From a virus (lineage: Duplodnaviria; Heunggongvirae; Uroviricota; Caudoviricetes), in the IMG/VR virus record IMGVR_UViG_2585427770_000004: a stretch of DNA of 40,296 nt; one strand, 5' to 3'. Shown piece by piece: positions 1-34,797 of the stretch. The notes beneath the pieces were generated by a model that had not been told where the DNA came from, did no database searches, and was given only the letters and a program-made list of their open reading frames with translations. Each line of letters starts with the position of its first letter. Position 1 is the stretch's first letter. A program made the position numbers and the translations under genes.

Positions 1-1158
1 ATGCTCACCGTTAAGCAGATTGAAGCAGCAAAGCCGAAAGAAAAACCATACCGCCTACTCGATGGTAATGGCCTGTACCTTTATGTCCCTGTGTCAGGGA
101 AAAAGGTATGGCAGCTTCGCTACAAGATTGACGGTAAGGAGAAAATCCTGACCGTAGGAAAATATCCGCTTATGACTTTGCAGGAGGCAAGGGATAAGGC
201 ATGGACTGCGAGGAAAGAGATCTCGGCTGGCATCGATCCGGTAAAAGCGAAAAAGGCTTCGTCTAACAACAATTCCTTTAGTGCCATTTACAAGGAATGG
301 TACGAGCACAAGAAGCAAGTCTGGTCAGTAGGCTATGCAACTGAACTTGCCAAAATGTTTGATGACGACATTTTACCCATCATCGGCGGTCTTGAGATTC
401 AGGATATTGAGCCGATGCAACTGCTGGAAGTAATCCGCAGATTTGAAGATCGCGGTGCAATGGAGCGAGCCAACAAAGCCCGCAGAAGATGCGGCGAGGT
501 TTTCCGTTACGCTATTGTCACCGGAAGGGCTAAATATAACCCGGCACCTGACCTTGCTGACGCCATGAAGGGATACCGCAAGAAGAACTTCCCGTTTCTT
601 CCTGCAGACCAGATCCCGGCATTTAACAAAGCACTGGCAACATTTTCAGGAAGCATCGTATCGCTCATTGCGACCAAAGTTTTACGCTACACAGCCCTCA
701 GAACAAAAGAGCTTCGTTCCATCCTATGGAAGAACGTCGATTTTGAAAACAGGATTATCACCATCGACGCCAGTGTGATGAAGGGACGCAAAATTCATGT
801 GGTTCCTATGTCAGACCAGGTGGTTGAACTTCTCACTACGCTAAGCTCAATCACCAAACCAGTATCAGAGTTTGTTTTTTCCGGGCGCAACGATAAGAAG
901 AAGCCAATCTGCGAGAACGCGGTATTGCTTGTGATCAAACAAATTGGCTATGAGGGTCTGGAAAGCGGTCACGGATTCAGGCATGAATTCAGCACAATTA
1001 TGAACGAGCACGAATGGCCTGCTGACGCTATTGAAGTGCAACTGGCACATGCCAACGGCGGATCTGTGCGTGGGATTTACAACCATGCTCAGTATCTCGA
1101 TAAACGCAGAGAAATGATGCAATGGTGGGCGGACTGGATTGATGAAAAGGTGGAGTGA
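1..1158 (+). CDS. int: Tyrosine integrase (P4/IntS-like family)
   Basis: 385 aa; N-terminus MLTVKQIEAAKPKEKPYRLLDGNGLYLYV typical of P4-type integrases; C-terminal catalytic region with HGFRHEF (HxxR) and RGIYNHAQY (Tyr nucleophile). Confidence 0.9.
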   Translation: MLTVKQIEAAKPKEKPYRLLDGNGLYLYVPVSGKKVWQLRYKIDGKEKILTVGKYPLMTLQEARDKAWTARKEISAGIDPVKAKKASSNNNSFSAIYKEWYEHKKQVWSVGYATELAKMFDDDILPIIGGLEIQDIEPMQLLEVIRRFEDRGAMERANKARRRCGEVFRYAIVTGRAKYNPAPDLADAMKGYRKKNFPFLPADQIPAFNKALATFSGSIVSLIATKVLRYTALRTKELRSILWKNVDFENRIITIDASVMKGRKIHVVPMSDQVVELLTTLSSITKPVSEFVFSGRNDKKKPICENAVLLVIKQIGYEGLESGHGFRHEFSTIMNEHEWPADAIEVQLAHANGGSVRGIYNHAQYLDKRREMMQWWADWIDEKVE

Positions 1159-1375
1159 TCCACCTTAACCACTATCGAAGAGCACAAAGCCTTGCAATCC
1201 AGTACAAAACTTTGTTTGTCTCATCAACCATAGCAAGTCATCGATCGATTGAGGCCTGGATGATAGACTTCATGCCTTTGATTATTAGCTGATAGAAGAA
1301 ATGTTAAAGCTATTTGCAATAGTACACCTCGATTGGTGTTATCAACACGCTAAAATGTTCTGAGATTAAGTCAAG

Positions 1376-2803
1376 ATGGAGTTAATTATGTTCAGAAATC
1401 AATATGCTATATCAGACGCTTCACTAAGTGGTAACATCAGTCCTGACATGGAATGGCACAGGATGAGCATATACCTAGGAGAGGGGGCAGAGGTTTTCGC
1501 TAATGACAATTGCATTATCATAGGTAAAGTCGTCAATAGCTGCGACCCTAGCATGTCCCCTAATGATATAGCAGACGCTGTATCATCATGCGACAGCATT
1601 GAAAGTGTTTTTGAACTGACTGATGGGATGGCAGGAAGATACATAATCGCTTTCATCATAAACTCAGAGGTATATATGCTCACTGATGCTTGCGGATTCA
1701 AAAGAGCTCTATTTATGAGGTATAATGGTGCTAAAATAATAACATCATCTGAAAATTACGCCGCTCACATATTTGGGTTTAACATTGTCATTAATGAAGA
1801 TATAAAAGATATGATGCGGGATGAATCCTACAGAAGAAAAGAAAGCCCATGGTTTGGTTTGACTTCTCCAGATGAAAGATTCAGTTATTTAATACCAAAT
1901 CACTACCTGTATATAGGTGATTTTACGTTACATCGCATGCCCCCGCCAAAAATTGGTGGTGATGTAATTACCAGCGCATCATCAATGATAAAGAATACAA
2001 TTTTAGCACTTTCTGAAAGGTATAAGTTGATACAGCCTATAACGGCTGGCATTGACAGTAGGATTCTTCTTGCAGCATCTGAATCAGTTAAAGATAAAAT
2101 CGATTATTATGTATTTGGAGACGAAAACTCAAACCACGAAGATGTGTCCGTTCCTAAAGAGCTAGCAAAAATAGTTGGCGTAAATTTTAATGCAATCACC
2201 CCTCCGTCAGCACCAGATGAGTTCAAAAAGAAAATCGAAATGACAGTTCTTAGTGGTAGGGATTTGCCAAAAATAGATAATATATACTATCACTATAAAA
2301 ATTCTAACTTTGAAAAAGTAAACATCAATGGTAATGGCGCAGAGATATTCAGGTCGTATTATGGCGCGTCGATATTAGAGTTTAGCGCCAAGTCACTCTC
2401 TATACTTTCTGGAACTAAAAAATGGCCCATCATGGAAAGAAAGATTTATGATTGGCTAACATTAACTGAAGCCAAAAGATTTTCTCAAGAGAACAACATA
2501 TCAATTACCGACCTTTTCTATTGGGAGCAAAGAATGGCAATATGGGGGTCTATGTTCCCTTTAGAGCAAGATATCGCAATGGATGAGGTGTCGCCATTCA
2601 GCAATAGAAAGCTAATTTTCACAATGCTGAGCGAATCTTCAAGCAAACGTAGATCACCAGACTTTAAATCGGCAACTTTGTTAATTAATTTTATGGATGA
2701 CAGATTAAATAAAGTGCCTGTAAATCCAAAATCATCAAACCATATTATAAACTTTATAAAGGCCCATACAATAACTCAGTTAATTGTTAAGAAAATAATC
2801 TAA
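1376..2803 (+). CDS. Asparagine synthetase (AsnB)-like synthetase-domain protein without N-terminal glutaminase cysteine; cargo gene
   Basis: 475 aa, markedly AT-rich by eye; segment GRYIIAFIINSEVYMLTDACGFKRALFMRYNGAKIITSSE resembles the AsnB GATase-II fold, but the N-terminus is MELIMF with no Cys2; degenerate PP-loop ITAGIDSRILL in place of SGGxDS. Confidence 0.45.
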   Translation: MELIMFRNQYAISDASLSGNISPDMEWHRMSIYLGEGAEVFANDNCIIIGKVVNSCDPSMSPNDIADAVSSCDSIESVFELTDGMAGRYIIAFIINSEVYMLTDACGFKRALFMRYNGAKIITSSENYAAHIFGFNIVINEDIKDMMRDESYRRKESPWFGLTSPDERFSYLIPNHYLYIGDFTLHRMPPPKIGGDVITSASSMIKNTILALSERYKLIQPITAGIDSRILLAASESVKDKIDYYVFGDENSNHEDVSVPKELAKIVGVNFNAITPPSAPDEFKKKIEMTVLSGRDLPKIDNIYYHYKNSNFEKVNINGNGAEIFRSYYGASILEFSAKSLSILSGTKKWPIMERKIYDWLTLTEAKRFSQENNISITDLFYWEQRMAIWGSMFPLEQDIAMDEVSPFSNRKLIFTMLSESSSKRRSPDFKSATLLINFMDDRLNKVPVNPKSSNHIINFIKAHTITQLIVKKII

Positions 2804-2814
2804 ATTTTAAATTT

Positions 2815-2847
2815 ATCAATATCGGGGAATGCAACCCCGATATTGAT
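2815..2847. terminator. Bidirectional terminator: perfect 13-bp inverted repeat between convergent genes
   Basis: ATCAATATCGGGG-AATGCAA-CCCCGATATTGAT with AT-rich flanks, between the AsnB-like gene (+) and the beta-helix gene (-). Confidence 0.6.
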
Positions 2848-2871
2848 TTAGATTGCGTGATTGATATGCAT

Positions 2872-4518
2872 TTAAATTATTGATAGCGTTCTGATTTCAT
2901 TCCCGACCGGTGATGTCATAACTATCCGTGTTACGTTAGCGCCGGACACCGTATACGTCAGAATTATGTTACCAGCGGTTCCTATATTAAAGTTTTGTTT
3001 AGCCCCTGATGAACCTATAGCTTTGGCATTCGTTAAAGTATACGTATTACCTGAGGTAAATCCTGTAGAAATTACAAATTGTTGATCAACTTTAAAAGGA
3101 ACTGTCATTGTTACGGATGTTGACTCGACAGTAACAAATGGCAGGCTAGGCTGTTTAACCCCCGTCACATCCCAGAACTCACAGTCGCGCACCAATGCTC
3201 GACTAATTAAACCGCGAGTTACAGGGAAGGTTGTCTGGTCCTGCGATAAGAATGCCCCAACGATTTGCACGTTATCGAGCGTAATATCGTGTACCGTGGT
3301 CCCATCTATAGGACTTAACGTTGGTGATGCACTCCAGAGTTTACCCCCCTTCATTTTGATACTCACAGGGGCATTTGGGTCTCCACCATAATATGCACGG
3401 ATACGCTCAAATTTACAATCTGTGAGTTCATAGCTGCCGCGTTGATTGGTTTCGAACATTGTGTAAGCCTCGCCAGGCACGCCATGTCTAACATTGCTGG
3501 CAACAACACGGGGGTTATGTCGGAACGATGCCGACGTAACAGAGAAAACCGGCGCGCAGACATCATTGATTATAATGTCCGTGGTATAACGCCCTGTAAC
3601 AGCGTTCTCAGAGTTACTCATATCCGAATATAGCGCTTTAAAACGGGAGAAGTCTATGTTAAGCCCAACCCCTGCGCTTTTCGGGAGGGGGCCAAAATCA
3701 AGCCCGTCAATAACAATTTTCTTAGGGAAGTAAAGAGTATCATCACGGCCCACAGTTATTAAAGTTCCAGGGTAAGTAGACACACTTCCTGGATAAACTT
3801 TAATATCTTTCAGGGTGATATTATTAAATAACGTAGGACTTATAGGCGAACCGCTACTCGGCCCTTGCCCGGCAGTGACGGCAGCATTGATAATGCCGTT
3901 ACCTGGAACGCCGTTACGCAAACCAGTTAGCTTGATATTCTCCATGTATAAATCACCATCAAAGTAACCACCCGCATCTGAGCGAGTTGCAATGATGTTT
4001 CCAGGCATGTCTGGCGATGAATTGAATGTTGAGTTTGTGACGTACAGGTCGCCAATCCCTGTTACAAGAACCCCGCTGCGGCCGATGTTGCAGTCATTGA
4101 TTTTTAAGTAGTTCTGGAATGGCATATGGAAATCAATCCGGCTTAAGTCGCACCTTTCAAATCGCACATTTGCACAATTATTGCTGCCAGTTGCGCCCCA
4201 CCCTTCCCCGTTTGCGGTTGCGTTTTTGATAGTTACATTCATTGAGTTACCCAACCCGATGGTGTAGGAGTAGATATCTCCCGTTCCTGTGAACGAGTCG
4301 GCAACCGAGGGCGCGAATAACCCATCAACGATGACATCGTAGCTTTCGTTGATTTCAAGACGGCTATCGCTGAAGTTTTGTGTTAGCGGCCTATTAATAA
4401 ATGAAGTATTAATCAGGCGAACTCGTGACGCTTGATTAATGTAAATAATTCGATAATTCTTTGTAAGACTTTCATCTATGGTTAGACCTTTAATAGTTTG
4501 CACGATTACGCGAAACAC
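2872..4518 (-). CDS. Orphan right-handed beta-helix protein (tailspike receptor-binding / polysaccharide depolymerase-like) lacking a head-binding domain
   Basis: 548 aa rich in G/N/T/S/V runs typical of pectate-lyase-like beta-helices (e.g. NGVPGNGIINAAVTAGQG); GTG start at 4516-4518 with an in-frame stop 10 codons upstream; no P22-type N-terminal adaptor; lies 78 bp downstream of the UmuD'-like gene on the same strand. Confidence 0.5.
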   Translation of the reverse strand: MFRVIVQTIKGLTIDESLTKNYRIIYINQASRVRLINTSFINRPLTQNFSDSRLEINESYDVIVDGLFAPSVADSFTGTGDIYSYTIGLGNSMNVTIKNATANGEGWGATGSNNCANVRFERCDLSRIDFHMPFQNYLKINDCNIGRSGVLVTGIGDLYVTNSTFNSSPDMPGNIIATRSDAGGYFDGDLYMENIKLTGLRNGVPGNGIINAAVTAGQGPSSGSPISPTLFNNITLKDIKVYPGSVSTYPGTLITVGRDDTLYFPKKIVIDGLDFGPLPKSAGVGLNIDFSRFKALYSDMSNSENAVTGRYTTDIIINDVCAPVFSVTSASFRHNPRVVASNVRHGVPGEAYTMFETNQRGSYELTDCKFERIRAYYGGDPNAPVSIKMKGGKLWSASPTLSPIDGTTVHDITLDNVQIVGAFLSQDQTTFPVTRGLISRALVRDCEFWDVTGVKQPSLPFVTVESTSVTMTVPFKVDQQFVISTGFTSGNTYTLTNAKAIGSSGAKQNFNIGTAGNIILTYTVSGANVTRIVMTSPVGNEIRTLSII

Positions 4519-4596
4519 CCCTGAGAACCGCCATGAACAAGGGTTTCATGATTTGTGATTTTAGTTTGGTACGCAATTTGGTACACAGCACAATTT

Positions 4597-4983
4597 TCAC
4601 TTCAGCGGGTAGTCATCAAACTCACCATAACGAGCATCGTTAATGATGTATGTGATTACGCCAAATATCGCATCAGGGCTCGTTCCGTCATCGTGCAGAG
4701 GTATAGCTTCCCTTCTTCCTGTCTGCAAATCTTCCAGGTGAACCTTGGGTGATTTTCGGTATCGCTTAATCCTCAGCTCACCTTCCATTCTGCAAACAAG
4801 TAATGAGCCGTCGCATGGTGATAGCGAAGCATCCACAACCAGCAGCGCGCCATTCAGGATACCTTCCCGGTAGTGCGTCGCACCCGCTCGCATGAAGTAC
4901 GTTGCCGCTGGCCTGCTTATGATGCACTTGTCGAGCGATATGCGCTCTTCAACGTAGTCTTGTGCTGGACTCGGGAATCCCAT
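4597..4983 (-). CDS. UmuD'-like protein (S24 peptidase fold; HumD-like analogue of processed UmuD)
   Basis: 128 aa starting MGFPSPAQDYVEERI, matching the region immediately after the UmuD Cys24-Gly25 cleavage site (GFPSPAADYVEQRI); the ASGDSM serine motif appears replaced (AGATHY); RBS GGAGGTG upstream. Confidence 0.7.
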   Translation of the reverse strand: MGFPSPAQDYVEERISLDKCIISRPAATYFMRAGATHYREGILNGALLVVDASLSPCDGSLLVCRMEGELRIKRYRKSPKVHLEDLQTGRREAIPLHDDGTSPDAIFGVITYIINDARYGEFDDYPLK

Positions 4984-5000
4984 AACTCACCTCCGATGGA

Positions 5001-5020
5001 TACTGTATATTAATACAGCA
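5001..5020 (-). promoter_or_regulatory. LexA operator (SOS box) upstream of the UmuD'-like gene
   Basis: TACTGTATATTAATACAGCA has a perfect CTG-N10-CAG core with AT-rich spacer, 18 bp upstream of the start codon at 4983. Confidence 0.7.
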
Positions 5021-5118
5021 TTACTGATCGGCGGTGTCGATCAATAGCGTTTGTGGTGCTAAACTTCAGACCTTTCAGAAGCTACTGATACTTATCAAAA
5101 AACTATTATAGGTGTATT

Positions 5119-6216
5119 TTGGAAATCGATAACAGTCCACCAAGAAAGAATAACCTTCAGTATATACAGGCGCTTAGGGCTATTGCAGCTATGCTTGTCG
5201 TACTTTGCCATGCAAGGGATTTTTTGAAAGGAACAGAATATGAATGGCTGGCTCAGCGATTATTTTGGCCTGGTGCATTCGGAGTTGATTTATTTTTCAT
5301 CATTAGTGGTTTTATCATAATTTATACGTCTCATAGCTACCAAAGCAATGATTTGATAAAGTTTATTAAAAAACGTTTCTTAAGAGTTTGGCCTCTATAT
5401 TTCATCATGACTATTGCATATATAGTCATTGTTAAAAATGTTGATTTATCTTTAATGCATGGGTTTTCATATAACCAATCATCTAGCTCATTTGAATTAA
5501 CAAACATAATCAAAGGTTTGCTTTTCATTCCACTAAACACTGAGTCACCTATATACTTTGGGCCTCCATCATTGTTCGTTGGATGGACCCTCAATTATGA
5601 AATATATTTTTATTTAGTTTGCGCCATTGGAATAGCGCTGGGGAAGTTTAGGTATACATTTTATATATTATGGTTTTTCATTACACTGTTAGCTTTGCCA
5701 TCTATTGCGGGTGTATTCGACAGACCAAAAATTGAAGGTTTAGGATATATAAATTTAACCATGCAAAGCCTGATTTGGGAGTTTGTCTTCGGTGCGATTA
5801 TTGCTATCCTATACAAAAGTGGTAACTTTTCAATTAGAGACAAAAGGATTGCAATACCATTAATTTCGATTGGAATCATAATCCCTGTATGGGCTTACAT
5901 AACACAGTTTGATGCTGGGCATGGGATTTTTCATTCAGGGAAATATTTTTGCATAATGTTTGCATGCTTTACTGCATGCTCTGACTACATACAAGACAAC
6001 ATCAAAATACCACGTATTTTCATCATGATTGGTGATGCTTCATACTCTTTGTATTTAGTTCATCCAATTACGTTTATATTATGCTTTAAGATGATAGATT
6101 GGCTTGGGATGGCTGATTTATCAAAAAGCTTCTCGTTTATTTTTATTGTATTTATAACATCTGTAGCTTTTGCACTACTAAGCTATAAATATATCGAGAA
6201 AAATATTCCAAGATAA
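5119..6216 (+). CDS. Membrane acyltransferase family 3 (Oac/OafA-like O-antigen acetyltransferase); probable lysogenic-conversion gene
   Basis: 365 aa, polytopic and hydrophobic; N-terminal motif IQALRAIAAMLVVLCHA typical of Acyltransferase_3; TTG start at 5119 with no in-frame ATG before the motif; AT-rich. Confidence 0.75.
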   Translation: MEIDNSPPRKNNLQYIQALRAIAAMLVVLCHARDFLKGTEYEWLAQRLFWPGAFGVDLFFIISGFIIIYTSHSYQSNDLIKFIKKRFLRVWPLYFIMTIAYIVIVKNVDLSLMHGFSYNQSSSSFELTNIIKGLLFIPLNTESPIYFGPPSLFVGWTLNYEIYFYLVCAIGIALGKFRYTFYILWFFITLLALPSIAGVFDRPKIEGLGYINLTMQSLIWEFVFGAIIAILYKSGNFSIRDKRIAIPLISIGIIIPVWAYITQFDAGHGIFHSGKYFCIMFACFTACSDYIQDNIKIPRIFIMIGDASYSLYLVHPITFILCFKMIDWLGMADLSKSFSFIFIVFITSVAFALLSYKYIEKNIPR

Positions 6217-6223
6217 TTTTGAA

Positions 6224-6246
6224 GCGGCATGTTTGAAACATGCCGC
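6224..6246. terminator. Bidirectional terminator between convergent acyltransferase and tailspike genes
   Basis: Palindrome GCGGCATGTTT-G-AAACATGCCGC flanked by T/A runs in the 36-bp gap between 6216 and 6253. Confidence 0.6.
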
Positions 6247-6252
6247 TATTGG

Positions 6253-8175
6253 TTAGGCAGAAATATTCACAATCCCCCATGTACTTCCATTCCACACCCA
6301 TTGGACAGTAGGGTCGGAAGGATATGTTGCTGGAGATGTTCTGTAGGACACCAAGCCGATTGGGAAAGAACCTGTGTTCTCTGTCACAGTAGGCTTTACG
6401 CTAGATCTCATTTTTACTTTCTCCCATCCGCAGAATACTGGAAGAAAGGTTCCGTTATACGGGCTAAAATACGCTCCTCCAACATAAGCGCTCATTCCGG
6501 ATTCAACTGTAATCCTTAATCTGTATGCTTTACTTTTGTCGTTGGTTGGCGCTGAAACTTTGTATAACTTCCACCCTCCAACACCCATATCGTAGAACTT
6601 ATTAACTGACATATAGATGGAATTAGTACCATCTTGGGCTTCTATAGCTATCTCAAGTGGTGTGTCGCCTTTAAAGTAAAAAGCTCCACGAATGAAACCT
6701 GTCTGTGTTTTAGTTAAATTTAGGGTTATTCTGCAAAGTTGAGATGCGTTAGTGACTCCAAACCATCTACCGCAGCCAGATGGTTCATTAGGGTCAGAAC
6801 CAACCTTTCGTTCGTTCGGTATAATTAAAAGGGAATAGTCAATAGGTGCTCCGTAGACTCCATCAATAACCGACCAATCTCCAGAAGGGCAAAGATTAGA
6901 ACCGGAGACACTGAACGTATCTCCTCCCTGTGCGCCTGCTGTAGGGTCTGTCCCTAATATGGTATTCATGGGGCTCATGGTTGAGGCCCAGTTACCATAT
7001 TGCACACGCGCGCCAAGTATGGTCCACGGCCCACGTATTTTCCCATTGCCCGTAACCTCGCCATACAAACCTATCACAACATTATGCTGATTTGGGGTGC
7101 TATTGTTATAGAGCAAATAATCGCCGCTTCCCGATGTGTCAAGACCTATAAATGTGTTTGCGTTCCCCTCATACGGAGCACCGGTCTGGCGACTAAAACC
7201 CGATCCAGTTATGATCAGACCACCACCGCAAAGCTGCTCAAATGTATTTTGATTTATAGATCCATCAGAGATGTCAATTATGAATCTGCCACCACCTGAC
7301 GTAGTACCTGTTTTGATGCGTACAAATTGATTCCAAAAACTCCCGCCACCCCATTCAACCAACCCAGGCAGAGTGTATGCGTCTGATGATAAAAATCTTA
7401 TATCGCCGGTCGTATCAATGTTCGAGATAATAGAAAACTGTAGCCCTCTAATGTATAACGATTTACATGAAAGGCCAGTTACATTTATAGATTTACTATG
7501 AAGGATTAGGAAATCCCCGTTAGGGATTCGGCCAACACAATCAACGTTACAGCGGATCACAAAGCGACCAGCAGAAGCATGAATGCCAGTCAGCTTGGTC
7601 ATATCAACGACATAATCGCCTGGAGGGATATGCAATGATTTTCTGTTTTTCCCATACTCAACTAATTGTGAATAATCACCGTTAGCATAATCCAATGCCT
7701 CACACAGTTTAGCAGTAACATCTGTACCATCCGGGAATACTCCCCATCCACGCACGTCTAAATCATCACGCCAGCGATAAATCTGCAATGCGGGATATTT
7801 GGTTGCCCCATCAGGGTCTTCAATCTGCTGCCTTAACTGATCTGGATCATACTTCAACACGTTTGGATAGTTGAACTGCTGTGTACCATAAGCATCGTAC
7901 ACAGCCATAGAATGGCCTTGCACGGTAACGAATTTGGCAATCTGTCCGTTATATACAGGATAACCAGCAGCGTTAATGATGATTGGTTGCGAAACAGGAA
8001 CGTGAGAGCCGTCTTCGTTCTCCACATAAACCTGAATCTGGTTTTCAGGATTTACCGGGTCAGTGTCAATTTTACCGATATAAATTTTGCCATTGGCAAC
8101 CGCTTTAAAAGAACGCGCCATAGTGAAGAGTTGCGAAGGCATGCTTACTACAACATTGGCTGTAATGTCTGTCAT
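6253..8175 (-). CDS. Tailspike protein (P22 gp9 family) with conserved N-terminal head-binding domain and divergent receptor-binding domain
   Basis: 640 aa; N-terminus [97 protein letters not shown] matches the P22/HK620/Sf6 adaptor domain as recalled; the remainder is beta-helix-like but unrecognised. Confidence 0.9.
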
Positions 8176-8233
8176 TTAATTTGCTCCAGATACAAGGAAT
8201 CGCCGCAGCGTAGCTACGGTGAATTTTGGGCAT

Positions 8234-8256
8234 AAAAAAACCCAGCCGAAGCTGGG
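8234..8256 (-). terminator. Rho-independent terminator between ant and tailspike
   Basis: Minus strand reads CCCAGC-TTCG-GCTGGG followed by TTTTTTTATG. Confidence 0.6.
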
Positions 8257-8275
8257 TCGTTGCGTTGGTTATCTG

Positions 8276-9154
8276 TCAGTAGTTATGTACTGAAGGAGGC
8301 AATTCTTTATTCTTAAGTCTCATCCATGCGGAAAGATTCGTTGGTCCGTCTGGCTCATTAATATCAACATCTCGTGTGTGGTTTATTAAAACGTCTCTCG
8401 CCATTCCGATAACATACGAGAATTCATGACCGTAGTCGTAGCATCTGCCGGAATAGTTCGATTGAATTTGTTTTAGCGCCGGATACAGTTCGCGGAATAA
8501 TGCCTGTGAGCGGTTGGCATAATCCCATAACCATACAAGGCTGTTTGCTTCTTTTGCAGAAAGCTCGTTGGTTTTCTTCTCTTGTTTGCCAATGAACTCA
8601 CCTTCAAGCACTACCCTGTGGATGTACTCTACGGCCAGCGGGATTTGTTCAATTGAAAGTTCATCAATGCTGTCAATACCAAAACGCTGATGAACCATAT
8701 TGTATGCATCGTCATAGCGAAGTCCTTTCCTTCCTACCAGCATGTTTACTGCATCGCGTAGCGGTGTTCTTTCCTCAACAGTGGTTTTCTTTCCTTTTAC
8801 ATACTCGCCATGTTTGCGAATTGAAGGCAGAACTTCTGCTGTTACCCACTTGCGGAATTTGTGCGGGACTGAACCTTTATTGACTGCATCGCGGCAGCGC
8901 AGAACCAATGTATACATACCTGATTCGCTCACAATGCTTAGATTCTGCTCACCACCAAGGGTGTAACTTAAAGTTACTCCCTTTTCATCGTCATCAAGTG
9001 CAGTAAGCGCCTTGCGTGAGTTAGTCAAATCTAAAGCATCACAAACATCTTTAGCTACAAACCACGGCTCACCGCACTTGTTGATGACGCGGATTTCACT
9101 GTCGCCGAATTTGAAGATGGTGAAATCGTTTTGTGCCTTTGCTATACTTTTCAT
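8276..9154 (-). CDS. ant: Antirepressor Ant (KilA-N/Bro-N type)
   Basis: 292 aa directly downstream of arc on the same strand; N-terminus [30 protein letters not shown] matches the antirepressor N-terminal domain. Confidence 0.8.
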
Positions 9155-9222
9155 GTCAATATTTCCTAATCCGATTTGTTGATGCCGAAGCCCTGACTGT
9201 TACAGCAGTTGGGGCTTCAACT

Positions 9223-9384
9223 TTACGCACCAATGCGCCCTTCCTTCTTAAAGCTTTCCATTACTCGCTGATAAATCTCAGAATTAACAGACCGACCATT
9301 TTCTTCCGCCACCTTGCGTACCAAATCCAATACTTCTTTAGGCCACCGCAAATTGAACTGTGGCATTTTGCTCATTCCTTTCAT
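9223..9384 (-). CDS. arc: Arc repressor
   Basis: 53 aa MKGMSKMPQFNLRWPKEVLDLVRKVAEENGRSVNSEIYQRVMESFKKEGRIGA, essentially P22 Arc as recalled; the track ORF 9223..9447 extends upstream over the operator. Confidence 0.9.
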   Translation of the reverse strand: MKGMSKMPQFNLRWPKEVLDLVRKVAEENGRSVNSEIYQRVMESFKKEGRIGA

Positions 9385-9399
9385 GTTCACCTCACAATA

Positions 9400-9418
9400 T
9401 AGGTCCACGGTGGACCTA
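9400..9418. promoter_or_regulatory. Mnt operator (O-mnt)
   Basis: Perfect 19-bp palindrome TAGGTCCACGGTGGACCTA between arc and mnt. Confidence 0.75.
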
Positions 9419-9426
9419 TTGAGAAT

Positions 9427-9447
9427 ATAGTAGAGTGCTTCTATCAT
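9427..9447. promoter_or_regulatory. Arc operator (O-arc)
   Basis: ATAGTAGAGTGCTTCTATCAT is the reverse complement of the recalled P22 arc operator ATGATAGAAGCACTCTACTAT. Confidence 0.75.
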
Positions 9448-9474
9448 GTCAATACACTAACTTGGAGTGATGGC

Positions 9475-9729
9475 ATGGCTAGAGATGATCCGCACTTTAA
9501 CTTCCGTATGCCTTTGGAAGTAAGAGAAAAATTGAAATTAAGAGCCGAGGCTAACGGAAGGTCAATGAACTCTGAGTTATTACAAATCGTTCAGGATGCA
9601 CTATCAAAACCATCACCGATTACAGGATATCGCGACGAAGCTGAACGCTTGGCTGATCAGCAGGCTGAGCAGTTCAAGGCTATAGTGTTTGAGACACTTA
9701 AAAAGATTTATGAAAAGGATTTGAAATGA
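9475..9729 (+). CDS. mnt: Mnt repressor
   Basis: 84 aa MARDDPHFNFRMPLEVREKLKLRAEANGRSMNSELLQIVQDALSKPSPITGY, near-identical to P22 Mnt as recalled. Confidence 0.9.
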   Translation: MARDDPHFNFRMPLEVREKLKLRAEANGRSMNSELLQIVQDALSKPSPITGYRDEAERLADQQAEQFKAIVFETLKKIYEKDLK

Positions 9730-10061
9730 GATTTCTATCACTGTTCTTGTTAGCAGTTGTCTCTTCTTCCAGTGCTGAGCTGCGCGAGCTTCAAACGGGT
9801 AATGACCTTCTTTACAACATTCAACAAGGTAAAAAGGGTGATGATTTTTCATCGCTTTACATTACTGGATATTTGCGCGGAGTAACTGACTCATTGATAC
9901 TAATTGGTTCTCTATGTCCTCCTGATGGCGTTGACATGTATCAATACACCGATATCGTTGAGAAATATCTAAACAAAAACCCAGAATCAAGAAATGAGAG
10001 TGCAGTTATACTAACCGCCCTAGCAGTAGGAAAAACATTTCCGTGCAAAAAGAATCAATAA
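9726..10061 (+). CDS. Secreted/periplasmic protein of unknown function (signal peptide), translationally coupled to mnt
   Basis: 111 aa; N-terminus MRFLSLFLLAVVSSSSAEL is signal-peptide-like; two Cys; ATGA start/stop overlap with mnt. Confidence 0.5.
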   Translation: MRFLSLFLLAVVSSSSAELRELQTGNDLLYNIQQGKKGDDFSSLYITGYLRGVTDSLILIGSLCPPDGVDMYQYTDIVEKYLNKNPESRNESAVILTALAVGKTFPCKKNQ

Positions 10062-10076
10062 CAATAAGGGCTTAAA

Positions 10077-10466
10077 ATGAAATTGATTATAGCAATGGCT
10101 TTCCTTGTCTTCTCGTTTTCTGTCTCAGCAGAGTGCTGGGTCGTTGGAGATATGCACGGAATAAGCTATTCAGAACGAAATAATTTTCAACCGGAAGAAG
10201 ATGGTTTTAGTGGAACATTCATCATTAAGACAAACGGTGAAGATGCCAGTATCACATATTCTGGGACGGATGCGGGCGGCATGGCTTACAAAGCATTGTC
10301 TAAAAACTCCATCATTGGAATCGGCGCGAATGGCGAAACTCAACGAGTTATCGACTCATGGGTAATACATCCTAATGGAACAGTTTTAATGTCGAAAACC
10401 ATTTCTGGTTATGGGAATATGGATTCAACCAAAGCTTTTGTTGGAAAAGTAAAAAGAAAATGTTAA
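10077..10466 (+). CDS. Secreted/periplasmic protein of unknown function (signal peptide)
   Basis: 129 aa; N-terminus MKLIIAMAFLVFSFSVSAEC is signal-peptide-like; RBS AAGGG upstream; C-terminal KRKC. Confidence 0.5.
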   Translation: MKLIIAMAFLVFSFSVSAECWVVGDMHGISYSERNNFQPEEDGFSGTFIIKTNGEDASITYSGTDAGGMAYKALSKNSIIGIGANGETQRVIDSWVIHPNGTVLMSKTISGYGNMDSTKAFVGKVKRKC

Positions 10467-10490
10467 CGATTGAATCCAATTCCCCATACG

Positions 10491-12332
10491 TTACTGCTGT
10501 GTTGCCTCAGTAGCAAGCAGCGGCCTGATGGCATTTGCAGCGTTACTCAACGCTCTTTCATAGGCTGGCGTTCCAGCTTTAGTGTTTGCCAGACGTAAGA
10601 GAGCATTCCTTGCTGCTTTGGACTCATACAAACGCATCATTGCACCAAAGCCAGCCTCAAGCCCCATTGATACACCAAGAGTCGCAGTTGCGCCAATCGT
10701 CCTTATCCTGTTGGCTTGTGATTGCCCCGTCTGAGTTACTACATTTGCAGTGTCTGACCTTGCTGTTTGCTGTAGAACTTCATGAAGAGCATCAAGCTCT
10801 TTCATGTGCTTTCCAGAAAAAATAGTGTTGTAAATTTCACCGCCTGACTGAGATTTCAGCTTATTAACTTCAGTGATGAACTTGGCTGGAGAGTCACCGG
10901 CCTTTTCCGCTATTTTGCTGACGTAAGCTGCACGCATAGCATCTTTCCCTTTATCATCCAGGGCGCTCCATATTCGTTTCACGTCAGATGGTTTTCTGCT
11001 TAATACAACGGTATTTATAAGTTCAGGACTGGCTTCACTGCTTGCCTTGTTGAGCTTGTTAGCAATGTTTTTATTAAGCACCTTATTATAAACGTTTGCA
11101 TAATCGGAATTTGCTTTAAGGTATTTTGCTGCGTCTGATGCACCGAGGTTTTTAGCAACTGCGTTACGAAGGTCTTTTGACATTGCATTCTCTACCATAT
11201 TGGTAGCTGCTTTTGCCTGGTTGGGGAAGACCATAGCATCTCCCTGAACATTAGATCTAAATGCTGTTCTGTGCTGACGCAAGAGATCAAACGTAACATC
11301 CAAATCAGTTGCAGGGTTTGCTAATTCTTCACGTAGGTTACGCAAGGATGTAAGCAGGCTTTGATTGGCAGACGTCCCAAGCCGTTCCTGTCTTGCGATC
11401 GCTGTATTCAGAGCATTCATGGTATTTGTGGTATCAACTGCGGCATTACCCATTTTATTGGTGACGTCATTGATAACAGCGCCAGCGGCATCCTTCCGCC
11501 CCCTTAACGTGGTGGTAAGAGATTTCACCACATCATCAGGGTTGTACTCACCAAAACGGTCAAAATAATTACTTACCAGCTTACTACGCGTTGCATATTG
11601 CTCCGCTCGCTTTGAGCCTGTCCCTAGCAAAGCCCCCTCGGCATCCTGAGTTAGGCCGCGAGTGAAAGCATTTTTCGGCGGGATAACATCAGATGTCATT
11701 GGTGTCACGCCCATCGATTCTGATGTGGCAATTTTCTTCGCCACTTCTGGCGCAATATCACCTTTTATAGCCGTTATTCCACGCCCTATTCCCTTTGCTG
11801 CTGCGGAAAGAACACCCTGAGTGGCAAGGTTAACTCCGGCATTTTTAGCTGCATTTTGTGCGAAATCGCCTTTCTGATTTGCGGCCTCTGCCAGTGATCC
11901 AATAGCCATGCTTCCTGCCGTTCCAACTCCTGGAACTAAATACCCACCAATTGTTTCACCGGCTTGCGCGTAGGGGTCTGTCGGTCTGTCTACTGGACGA
12001 TAAACATCATCCAAAACCTTGGGTCCACCAAGCCCCTGACTGATTGCATTAATCAGACTTGCGCCGCCCTGCAATACGTCAAATGGTATGTTTACCAGAC
12101 CACGACCAGCCTGTTCTGCAATTTGCCCTGCACTTTGACCACCAGTGAGCCAATCGCCAGCTTGTTGCATCAATGATGGTTCTTCCCGTGTTGGTGCATT
12201 ATTGGCCTGATTAACTGTTTGTTGCTGAACAGCCTGACCAGCAAAATACTCATCAATGGCGGTGCCAATATCTTCGGTGCTCGTACCATCAGGAAAGGTA
12301 AATGTCTTACCGTTTGCAGTTACTTTCATCAT
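10491..12332 (-). CDS. DNA ejection/transfer protein gp16
   Basis: 613 aa; N-terminus [33 protein letters not shown] matches P22 gp16; true start may be the second ATG at 12329 (ATGATGA overlap with the gp20 stop). Confidence 0.85.
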
Positions 12333-34146: not shown

Positions 34147-34797
34147 ATGAATACACAACTGATGGGTGAGCGTATTCGCGCTCGCAGAAAAGAACTCAAG
34201 ATTAGGCAGGCTGCCCTTGGCAAGATGGTTGGCGTGTCTAATGTTGCTATTTCCCAATGGGAGCGATCTGAAACTGAGCCCAATGGCGAAAACCTATTGG
34301 CCTTAGCCAAGGCTTTGCAGTGCTCCCCTGATTACCTGTTGAAAGGAGAGGATAGTCTTTCAAACATTGCCTATCACAGCAGGCATGATCCAAGAGGTTC
34401 GTATCCTCTAATTAGTTGGGTAAGCGCAGGATGTTGGATGGAAGCTGTAGAGCCATATCATAGGCGTGCAATAGATAACTGGTACGACACAACGGTAGAT
34501 TGTTCTGAAGACTCTTTTTGGCTCGACGTTAAAGGCGATTCAATGACTGCCCCGGCAGGACTGAGTATTCCTGAGGGGATGATTATTCTCGTCGACCCAG
34601 AAGTCGAACCACGTAATGGAAAGTTGGTAGTCGCCAAACTTGAAGGAGAAAACGAGGCGACATTCAAAAAGTTAGTTATTGATGCCGGTAGAAAATTCCT
34701 GAAACCACTCAATCCACAATACCCAATGATTGAAATCAATGGGAACTGTAAAATCATTGGCGTTGTCGTTGATGCCAAGCTAGCAAACCTTCCTTAA
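34147..34797 (+). CDS. c2: C2 repressor (HTH plus S24 autopeptidase domain)
   Basis: 216 aa MNTQLMGERIRARRKELKIRQAALGKMVGVSNVAISQWERSETEPNGENLLALAKALQCSPDYLL..., near-identical to P22 C2 as recalled. Confidence 0.9.
   Translation: MNTQLMGERIRARRKELKIRQAALGKMVGVSNVAISQWERSETEPNGENLLALAKALQCSPDYLLKGEDSLSNIAYHSRHDPRGSYPLISWVSAGCWMEAVEPYHRRAIDNWYDTTVDCSEDSFWLDVKGDSMTAPAGLSIPEGMIILVDPEVEPRNGKLVVAKLEGENEATFKKLVIDAGRKFLKPLNPQYPMIEINGNCKIIGVVVDAKLANLP

Follow-up and report, generated by a model that had tools for sequence, protein, structure and literature searches.

The window, a stretch of 40,296 nucleotides, represents a P22-like (CUS-3/Kapi1-type) prophage integrated at argW. The features discussed here lie towards its integrase end and are listed by coordinates, strand and identity.

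1..1158, + strand, intS-type tyrosine integrase (argW site), with Pfam domains Arm-DNA-bind_3, Phage_int_M and Phage_integrase
1376..2803, + strand, ORF475, partner gene of the old tailspike, asparagine-synthetase-like family
2816..2846, no strand, strong hairpin with a 12-13 bp stem (MFE -24.7 kcal/mol, z = -5.6; 0/200 shuffles fold as well)
2872..4518, - strand, decapitated tailspike remnant ("beta-helix ORF") of 548 codons, by homology to an 843-aa parental tailspike
4501..4510, - strand, truncated att core CGTAATCGTG, the first 10 bases of the 13-bp core CGTAATCGTGAAA, with the recombination joint next to it
4511..4596, - strand, P arm of a phage-2851-type attP, the sequence normally found between humD and the att core
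4597..4983, - strand, humD, encoding a pre-processed analogue of UmuD' (128 aa, S24-like fold), by the NCBIfam HumD equivalog NF051876
5001..5020, - strand, LexA (SOS) box, TACTGTATATTAATACAGCA on the + strand and TGCTGTATTAATATACAGTA on the gene strand
5022..5046, - strand, conserved palindrome TATTGATCG-N7-CGATCAGTA, by inverted-repeat search
5119..6216, + strand, O-antigen acetyltransferase (Acyl_transf_3, Pfam PF01757, 100.7 bits; PHROG O-acetyltransferase)
6223..6247, no strand, perfect 12-bp inverted repeat between the convergent acyltransferase and tailspike genes
6253..8175, - strand, functional tailspike of 640 aa with an N-terminal P22-type head-binding domain (Head_binding PF09008, 219.9 bits)

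In relatives the integrase is annotated intS and adjoins tRNA-Arg and yfdC. ORF475 gave zero matches in Pfam, NCBIfam and PHROGs; some of its homologues carry the name 'asparagine synthetase domain-containing', it always adjoins the old-tailspike type in the loci compared, and it may have a role in O-antigen modification. The hairpin at 2816..2846 is the original terminator of the old tailspike gene, convergent with ORF475. The palindrome that had been pointed out behind the functional tailspike is the perfect inverted repeat at 6223..6247, which is likely a bidirectional terminator. The prophage also encodes a RecA-cleavable repressor of the CI type (34147-34797). A umuC gene is absent from the window, as was originally stated, since each ORF of at least UmuC-like size has another assignment: integrase, ORF475, tailspike remnant, acyltransferase, tailspike, Ant, gp16, gp20, gp10, coat, portal, terminase and DnaB. 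Among these gp16, for which Pfam gave zero matches, was assigned via synteny with the identical locus L089.

The gene behind the LexA box is an ordinary full-length member of the known phage HumD family of pre-cleaved UmuD' proteins. Its product scores 207.3 bits against NF051876 (cutoff 120), with residues 1-127 corresponding to profile positions 1-128 of 129, and 84.7 bits against UmuD subfamily PRK10276, below the cutoff of 110. Residue 2 (G) aligns with residue 1 of crystallised UmuD' (1UMU), which is Gly25 of UmuD, as well as with residue 25 of UmuD in 8GMT; the start at the post-cleavage UmuD' N-terminus had thus been read correctly. Compared to E. coli UmuD/UmuD', the accessory subunit of Pol V, the protein has the S24 fold, 36% identity and the equivalent of Lys97. 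Unlike UmuD it comes without the 24-residue N-terminal pro-segment, so that RecA-dependent cleavage is unneeded, and unlike umuDC its gene lies outside any umuC operon. LexA-controlled HumD genes are already known as a curated accessory family, widespread among phages, and NCBI has annotated the identical protein.

The proposed analogy with phage P1 HumD is borne out by membership in the same curated family. Both proteins have 128-129 aa, start at the UmuD' N-terminus and are 71% identical; both genes have a 20-bp LexA box 17-19 nt before the ATG, annotated in P1 as shared with lxr, and no linked umuC. In P1, however, the upstream conserved GATC palindrome is absent, and humD precedes phd-doc on a plasmid prophage, whereas here it belongs to a P22-like prophage, at the end with the integration module. 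Further counterparts are N15 gp26 (83% identity), HK140 gp28, the 'DNA polymerase V subunit' of APC_JM3.2 and the HumD of sbcB/dacD prophages (WP_024207724.1), which belong to the same family with 75-100% identity. In all of these the accessory genes behind the tail fibre or tailspike region end with humD, and it is usually the last gene before attP-int or attR (HK140, APC_JM3.2, NCTC9038, DAM). HK140, APC_JM3.2 and the sbcB/dacD prophages also have the att arm in common with the window. The acyltransferase-humD pair is 99.7-99.8% identical to the pair at the sbcB/dacD prophage end; the acetyltransferase gene, humD and the new tailspike body arrived jointly.

The LexA box starts 37 nt and ends 17 nt ahead of the humD ATG (4983-4981), with a Shine-Dalgarno GGAGG at 4994-4990 in between. 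The core pattern CTGT-N8-ACAG occurs once in the 40 kb window, at this box, which by itself is not significant (0.48 expected; at least one copy in 35 of 100 shuffles). At up to three mismatches from the 20-nt LexA consensus the box is the sole site in the window, a score reached in 0/100 shuffles. The SOS box of the original prediction is a strong one. It is kept in 79 of 80 related IMG/VR humD loci, at the same position in 47 and about 275-305 nt upstream in 32; in the latter it precedes a small extra ORF that matched no family above threshold. The P1 record annotates an equivalent LexA binding site 19 nt before humD, and humD has been stated to be LexA-regulated (PMC9603915). By analogy, host LexA would bind the predicted box at 5001-5020 and repress humD.

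A sigma-70 consensus scan returned no canonical -10/-35 pair for humD and, given this null result, the promoter region was placed from the conserved boundary of the cassette. Within the palindrome at 5022..5046 are two GATC sites and a -35-like TTGATC (5044-5039). The palindrome delimits the humD cassette on its upstream side: loci that are otherwise unrelated become homologous exactly at TTGATC. It may have a promoter function. With the order TTGATC-containing palindrome, LexA box, Shine-Dalgarno and humD, the cassette is a self-contained accessory placed between intS and the tailspike.

Downstream of humD, on the same strand, lies the ORF that had been described as an orphan beta-helix protein. 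Its beta-helix nature holds: the body is 49-59% identical to Rtp rtp50, annotated 'beta-helix fold', and to MK-13 gp199 (tblastn), it covers positions 424-961 of 963 of a PHROG tail-fibre profile, and it matches the PDB tail spike 8x8m with E 4.6e-20. Pfam and NCBIfam had zero matches for this ORF, and its homology came from PHROGs and tblastn. It is no orphan, being the 3' 65% of the gene for an 843-aa P22-type head-binding tailspike. According to the protein alignment with the GS04 homologue, codons 1-5 derive from the att site, and codons 6-548 cover the C-terminal part of the parent (543 residues, ~301-843). At the nucleotide level the remnant is 98.7-99.1% identical to E. coli DAM and 89% to a GS04 'phage head-binding domain-containing protein'. 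The Head_binding domain (PF09008) is found in the tailspike at 6253-8175 and in the 843-aa parent, not in ORF 2872-4518. Homologues in Rtp and MK-13 define residues 122-843 of the parent as a conserved receptor-binding module; the cut falls inside this module, and ~178 of its residues are missing. The parent is of the same type as P22/Sf6-type tailspikes, which combine a head-binding domain with a beta-helix receptor-destroying body, whereas in the remnant the head-binding domain is gone, along with the first quarter of the body.

The remnant has no credible translation start or properly spaced ribosome-binding site. There is no ATG at its start; the GTG at 4518 has an AGGG directly abutting, and the first Met is residue 93. 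The frame of 548 codons is open and identical across 12 contigs, which is expected after a recent event and is no proof of decay. Tailspikes of other phages that are shortened at the N-terminus can fold, a point that weighs against reading the remnant as dead. Its dN/dS is ~0.13 versus DAM and ~0.10 versus GS04, values that are uninformative here since the truncation is younger than most of the divergence. The remnant has seven amino-acid changes specific to its lineage, which cluster at residues 453-498.

The intact ancestor of the locus is found in several assemblies, with the order yfdC-intS-ORF471-843-aa Head_binding tailspike at argW. The window is collinear with these relatives over 1-4503 and again from 7836. 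On balance the old tailspike gene has lost 560 bp (codons ~114-298), and in their place are 3.3 kb consisting of a new tailspike body, the O-acetyltransferase, humD and an attP arm. In the functional tailspike the body downstream of ~7835 is imported, and homology to the ancestral argW prophage is back only at 7836-8190. An origin by intramolecular excision from the arrangement seen in DAM was considered and rejected: the DAM tailspike fragment is IS1-flanked cargo that extends further 5' and represents an independent arrangement.

The P arm that follows humD is identical to the attR side of the sbcB/dacD prophages in NCTC9038, DAM and GPEC1292; it also resembles attP in HK140 and APC_JM3.2 and the right ends of the Stx phages 2851 and 1717. 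The window carries the identical 13-bp core, in truncated form, and P arm of the integration module of phage 2851, Stx2c-phage 1717 and Sf101, which has its attB at the sbcB 5' end and in which a 336-bp humD 3' fragment serves as P arm. A duplication of the 13-bp core is annotated in FJ188381, attL, attR and attP have exactly these 13 bp (CGTAATCGTGAAA) in common, and the reconstructed attB is contiguous, as an empty site, in 4,841 of 5,426 E. coli genomes. That the 336-bp humD fragment forms part of attB was also considered and rejected, since the empty site holds the 13-bp core alone. Unlike in phages 2851, 1717 and Sf101, the core in the window is away from its own integrase and from sbcB/dacD, inside an argW prophage with intS. 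Also, where humD is followed by attP-int, attR-dacD or a terminator in the N15, HK140, APC_JM3.2 and sbcB/dacD elements, in the window a tailspike fragment is joined to the att core.

The window tracks the P arm of attR and attP through CGTAATCGTG and changes to tailspike sequence after CGTG, such that the joint between humD and the remnant reads CGTAATCGTG|CAAAC. In the intact 843-aa tailspike allele the corresponding site is AAGGACGTGCAAAC. This resident site is weakly similar to the att core (CGC-N5-CGTG-C-AAAC), with ~11 nt in common between the secondary site in the tailspike and the att core region. The imported segment ends at the exact point where every attP, attR and attL diverges. 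Because the right joint falls within the 13-bp core of a phage-2851-type attachment site, it points to a scar made by an integrase.

We therefore favour the reading, with a probability of roughly 0.82, that a HumD cassette sits beside a dead tailspike, joined to it by a recombination scar in an att core, and that there is no designed SOS operon; the figure applies to the explanation as a whole, which includes that the remnant is a promoterless and start-less pseudogene outside the humD device. The proposed history would have involved a second P22-like phage with the order tailspike-acyltransferase-humD-attP-int and a 2851-type integrase, whose usual target is the sbcB 5' end. Its attP core may have recombined with the weakly similar site in the tailspike gene of the resident prophage. 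A later homologous exchange, in the head-binding or late region common to both, would have removed the rest of the incoming phage, leaving a prophage with a new receptor specificity, the matching O-acetyltransferase and humD, plus a C-terminal tailspike fragment. As in modular exchange of the P22/Sf6 type, one boundary is at the customary place, where the head-binding domain ends; unlike in such exchange, the other boundary is an att core and not a homologous linker.

The same anatomy could have arisen by random microhomology-mediated illegitimate recombination at CGTG/AAAC, with the integrase uninvolved and the att-core position coincidental. The crossover shares just four contiguous bases (CGTG) plus an AAAC offset by one base, and the region is rich in mosaic joints, such as a humD-intS joint of another kind in CH4804 and one between an intS remnant and a humD fragment in GPEC1292. 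Against this, a breakpoint within a specific 13-bp target amounts, by simple arithmetic, to ~3e-4 of a 40-kb phage and to less than 1% of the 1.9-kb module, and chance would also have to place the end of the import precisely at the att divergence point. We consider this origin of the joint unlikely but worth keeping in mind.

With regard to HumD itself, the gene would, by analogy with P1 HumD, allow DNA damage to yield HumD without RecA-mediated cleavage, and the protein would pair with host UmuC to give Pol V-like translesion synthesis. Such a HumD-UmuC function is probable here. P1 HumD reportedly complements UmuD', going by the title of McLenigan et al. 1999 and a note in the P1 record. HumD might instead be a UmuD-like regulator without a role in translesion synthesis, for example a brake on replication or RecA during prophage induction. 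In its favour, Thr replaces Ser at the position of UmuD Ser60 here and in the proteins of N15 (gp26) and HK140, but not in P1; a phage umuC is absent; and a RecA-cleavable CI-type repressor is encoded by the prophage itself, so that humD derepression coincides with induction. The catalytic Ser is, however, irrelevant to an already processed UmuD' form, the reported complementation concerns a 71%-identical protein, and the NCBIfam match is at equivalog level, which together make a regulatory role improbable.

The original prediction went further in reading humD and the beta-helix ORF as one SOS-controlled unit with a damage-induced function outside the virion, in effect a two-gene operon releasing a free, virion-independent beta-helix enzyme such as a soluble O-antigen depolymerase or a receptor decoy. 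The arrangement invites this. Both ORFs are on the same strand with a gap of 78 nt (the humD stop ends at 4597, the next ORF has its GTG at 4518), a strong terminator follows the beta-helix ORF, and that ORF is intact and identical on 12 contigs. A terminator between the genes, which would have spoken against a common transcript, was not recognised among the predictions for that interval, and an SOS-induced read-through RNA from humD into the remnant is plausible. What stands of the unit is a UmuD'-type gene under a LexA box with no terminator before the next ORF; a deliberate coupling does not. The joint is a recombination scar in an att core, the ORF has lost its head-binding domain and ~178 residues of the conserved enzymatic module, and its sole start is the GTG with its abutting AGGG, 92 residues ahead of the first Met.

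The pairing is also not conserved. A beta-helix homologue was found in 0 of 80 related IMG/VR humD loci within the fetched flanks, 41 of which had at least 800 bp downstream. The humD-tailspike joint occurs in no complete E. coli genome, scans for the exact joint gave zero matches in GTDB representative genomes and IMG/VR, and the arrangement, located only by exact-protein look-up, is limited to one near-identical prophage lineage (99.96-100% identity). A genuine two-gene unit with such a product is thus very improbable, and the remnant is probably not expressed. Still less credible is that derepressed PhumD reads through and the shortened fragment is translated from the GTG or an internal start as a free O-antigen-binding or -cleaving factor; if true, it might aid release or block re-adsorption during induction, and an accidental humD-remnant fusion would have been exapted into a damage-induced function.

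With a known cassette beside a pseudogene, the functional claim matters little, and the tempting SOS-controlled orphan beta-helix is explained away. The locus is rather a clean natural record of a receptor-specificity swap in a temperate phage: of the two crossovers that brought in the block, one lies in the head-binding region, the other within a foreign att core. The latter suggests that an integrase, when it acts on a secondary site, is able to make mosaic joints between phages with different integration modules.

The window is a P22-like prophage (Lederbergvirus; related to CUS-3, Kapi1 and Sf6) that reads inward from intS. Its bases 1-10518 are 100% identical to contig JOQH01000001.1 of NCBI assembly GCA_000713985.1, in which yfdC adjoins the integrase, placing the prophage at the argW site. 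Four genes form an accessory zone between intS and the tailspike gene.

Features of the window
1-1158: intS integrase gene
1376-2803, + strand: ORF475
2872-4518, - strand: beta-helix ORF, 548 codons
4597-4983, - strand: UmuD'-like gene, 128 codons
5119-6216, + strand: O-acetyltransferase gene (Acyl_transf_3)
6253-8175, - strand: real tailspike gene (Head_binding domain, 219.9 bits)
34147-34797: S24-type CI repressor gene of the prophage

The original prediction took the ORF at 2872-4518 for an orphan beta-helix protein, put under SOS control for a function of its own; it is a decapitated tailspike. Its DNA shows 98.7-99.1% identity to a gene fragment of E. coli DAM and ANT, and 89% identity to the 3' two-thirds of the gene for an 843-aa 'phage head-binding domain-containing protein' (GS04, BL12, BHD6), hereafter the old tailspike. 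In the protein alignment codons 1-5 are unmatched and homology sets in at ...VQTIKGL, around residue 301 of the 843-aa protein. Comparison of the latter with Rtp rtp50 (960 aa) and MK-13 gp199 (926 aa) places the start of the receptor-binding module at residue 122-125 (VTLKEFGAIGDG...), so the ORF has no head-binding domain and begins only about 178 residues into the module. The match to the PHROG tail-fibre profile begins at position 424 of 963. The sole start is a GTG with AGGG directly abutting, the first Met being residue 93.

Seven amino-acid differences separate the remnant (2872-4503) from the DAM allele, all of them in a 46-residue stretch (453-498) near the C-terminus, and GS04 too differs from the window at these positions; either a patch of recombination or drift specific to the lineage could explain the cluster. 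DAM itself (locus L002, 7836-13013) has a longer fragment of the old tailspike (659 codons) with ORF471, the gene beside it in relatives, between two IS1 copies, inserted 28 bp from the end of the tailspike gene adjoining acyltransferase-humD. This piece looks like an IS1 composite with a tailspike module.

On its gene strand the window follows base for base the sequence downstream of humD in sbcB/dacD prophages (NCTC9038, DAM, GPEC1292) up to ...GGGGTGTTTCGCGTAATCGTG, after which it changes to tailspike sequence CAAACTATTAAAGG...; thus the P arm and 10 of 13 core bases are joined to an internal site of the old tailspike. The core is the 13-bp integration duplication CGTAATCGTGAAA annotated in the record of Stx2c phage 1717. 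It is exactly common to attL (sbcB side), attR (dacD side) and attP (HK140, APC_JM3.2), both flanks diverging as expected, and the reconstructed empty site is contiguous at the sbcB 5' end in 4,841 of 5,426 complete E. coli genomes. The usual place of humD is as the last gene ahead of attP and the integrase of the 2851 type (that of phages 2851 and 1717); in several Stx and lambdoid phages the gene is reduced to a 336-bp piece of its 3' end, which serves as P arm. The internal tailspike site reads ...ACGCAAGGACGTGCAAAC in the closest allele and has CGC-N5-CGTG and an offset AAAC in common with the att region.

Several assemblies, found by exact look-up of the ORF475 homologue, have the order mlaA-yfdC-intS-ORF471-843/844-aa Head_binding tailspike-Arc/Mnt-gp16. 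The window is collinear with such intact argW prophages in two stretches: over 1-4503, at 96-97% identity, and from 7836 onward, within the head-binding region, at 90-92%. Since collinearity ends at 4503 and resumes at 7836, the old tailspike lost 560 bp (codons ~114-298) and received 3,332 bp in their place. Along with the new tailspike body and its terminator, the imported block contains the acyltransferase and humD as well as the P arm and the partial core; it shows 99.7-99.8% identity to sbcB/dacD prophages at their right end. The terminator is likely the perfect 12-bp palindrome AGCGGCATGTTT/AAACATGCCGCT at 6223-6247, where the tailspike and acyltransferase genes converge, which would act bidirectionally; its presence after the real tailspike had been predicted correctly. 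The last 28 bp of the tailspike gene still belong to the stretch homologous to DAM, so the terminator moves together with the acyltransferase-humD block.

A 2851-type P22-like phage would have inserted itself, by means of its integrase, into the resident tailspike at a secondary site; homologous recombination within shared sequence, in either the head-binding or the late region, would then have deleted the remainder. A joint arising by chance, through microhomology-mediated illegitimate recombination at that spot, is possible, as other mosaic joints are abundant in the region (CH4804, GPEC1292); against it, the joint lies within a 13-bp target that amounts to about 3e-4 of a phage genome, and because of this position we infer the integrase step, integration followed by homologous recombination being the most economical history. 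The remaining interest of the locus is this att-core mosaic joint, a putative record of integrase-assisted exchange of tailspike and serotype module.

The argW prophage of CH4804 (locus L003, 2738-3121) has the order intS-humD-acyltransferase-tailspike and no old-tailspike remnant, and its humD is annotated as a pseudogene without C-terminus; the module is the same, but it was imported independently and its joint is a different one. In a prophage remnant at the sbcB/dacD site of GPEC1292 (locus L004, 8335-8341; window 1098 and 4833), the 3'-terminal 60 bp of an intS-type integrase gene, with the DNA that follows it, directly abut a humD 3' fragment, which makes a hybrid of the reverse type between both integration modules. 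This intS-tail homology recurs in Sf101, EC.P3, E212 and Huey, where it begins at about 1075-1101.

The UmuD'-like gene is of an already known kind. Its product gives a full-length match of 207 bits (cutoff 120) to the NCBIfam equivalog 'HumD family translesion DNA polymerase' and does not reach the cutoff set for the UmuD subfamily model; identity is 71% to P1 HumD, 75% to the homologue in HK140 and 83% to N15 gp26. Identical proteins in E. coli RefSeq genomes are labelled HumD family or S24 family peptidase. As had been proposed, the gene begins at the UmuD' N-terminus, residue 2 pairing with residue 1 of crystallised UmuD' (Gly25 of UmuD), and no umuC-like gene is present, every large ORF in the window falling in another family. 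The Lys97 equivalent is retained, whereas the Ser60 position is Thr in the window, N15 and HK140 and Ser in P1; this is of no consequence, because this form needs no self-cleavage.

The predicted LexA-type box (TACTGTATATTAATACAGCA, 5001-5020) also held. It is the sole CTGT-N8-ACAG in the window, a motif by itself not significant (0.48 expected; present in 35 of 100 shuffles), and the sole site with at most 3 mismatches to the 20-nt LexA consensus, which no shuffle reached. Its end lies 17 nt from the humD ATG, with GGAGG inside that interval; a consensus scan called no canonical humD promoter. In the GenBank entry for P1, a LexA binding site (TACTGTATAAATGAACAGTA) is marked 19 nt 5' of humD, and a survey of P1-plasmids places humD under LexA regulation (PMC9603915). 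Among 80 related humD loci from IMG/VR, such a box stood within 120 nt of the start in 47 (mostly at -37) and in 32 it stood farther upstream, at about 275-305 nt, with an inserted ~80-codon ORF between box and humD; a single locus had half a box. Because homology across otherwise unrelated loci starts exactly at TTGATC and spans the GATC palindrome, LexA box and Shine-Dalgarno, the cassette is a portable, self-contained SOS unit that LexA would bind.

The palindrome, TTGATCG-N7-CGATCA (window 5022-5046; loci L011-L048), has two GATC (Dam) sites, lies directly 5' of the box at the exact upstream edge of the mobile cassette and is missing in P1; possible roles are those of a -35 element, a methylation-sensitive element or a site for a second regulator. 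The inserted ~80-codon ORF (32 of 80 loci, among L009-L088; HK140 locus L006, 2238-2477; L057, 2588-2998) matches no known family. In the two loci inspected, HK140 and L057, dinI lies divergently across the box region, giving a small SOS-controlled gene cluster.

In a lysogen humD would be repressed by LexA. DNA damage would inactivate LexA, likewise the CI repressor, and HumD, produced already active, would pair with host UmuC, a partnership we infer from P1 HumD, for which complementation has reportedly been seen.

The SOS-regulated gene thus stands as a known HumD cassette, but its purposeful coupling to a beta-helix protein does not: the coupling is a recombination accident. A selected, damage-induced beta-helix function is very improbable. 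The two genes share a strand, the 78-nt gap between them is as predicted and free of terminator-like structure (z = -0.28), a strong hairpin (z = -5.6) lies 3' of the remnant, and 12 contigs carry the remnant with an identical, open frame; against this stand the att-core scar, the truncation inside the module, the missing start signal, a beta-helix homologue in the fetched flanks of 0 of 80 related humD loci, and a humD-tailspike joint not found in 5,426 complete E. coli genomes, GTDB representatives or IMG/VR. The carriers form one recent lineage, since they differ by just 0-3 bases over 9-10 kb. Read-through RNA from humD into the remnant is possible.

ORF475 matched no family in Pfam, NCBIfam or PHROG. 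Its homologues occur in many bacteria, a few under the name 'asparagine synthetase domain-containing', and it always lies beside this tailspike type (DAM, GPEC1292, argW prophages). Because O-antigen-modifying genes usually occupy this position, ORF475 may encode an uncharacterised enzyme that modifies the O-antigen. An immI-like region adjoining ant (window 9726-10466; 53-1296 of L089, the locus identical to the window) carries, by precomputed Pfam marks, Arc/Mnt-type repressors and an ORF with a Rap1a domain (PF18602). Rap1a domains are immunity proteins against type VI secretion amidase effectors, an unusual cargo in a P22-like phage.
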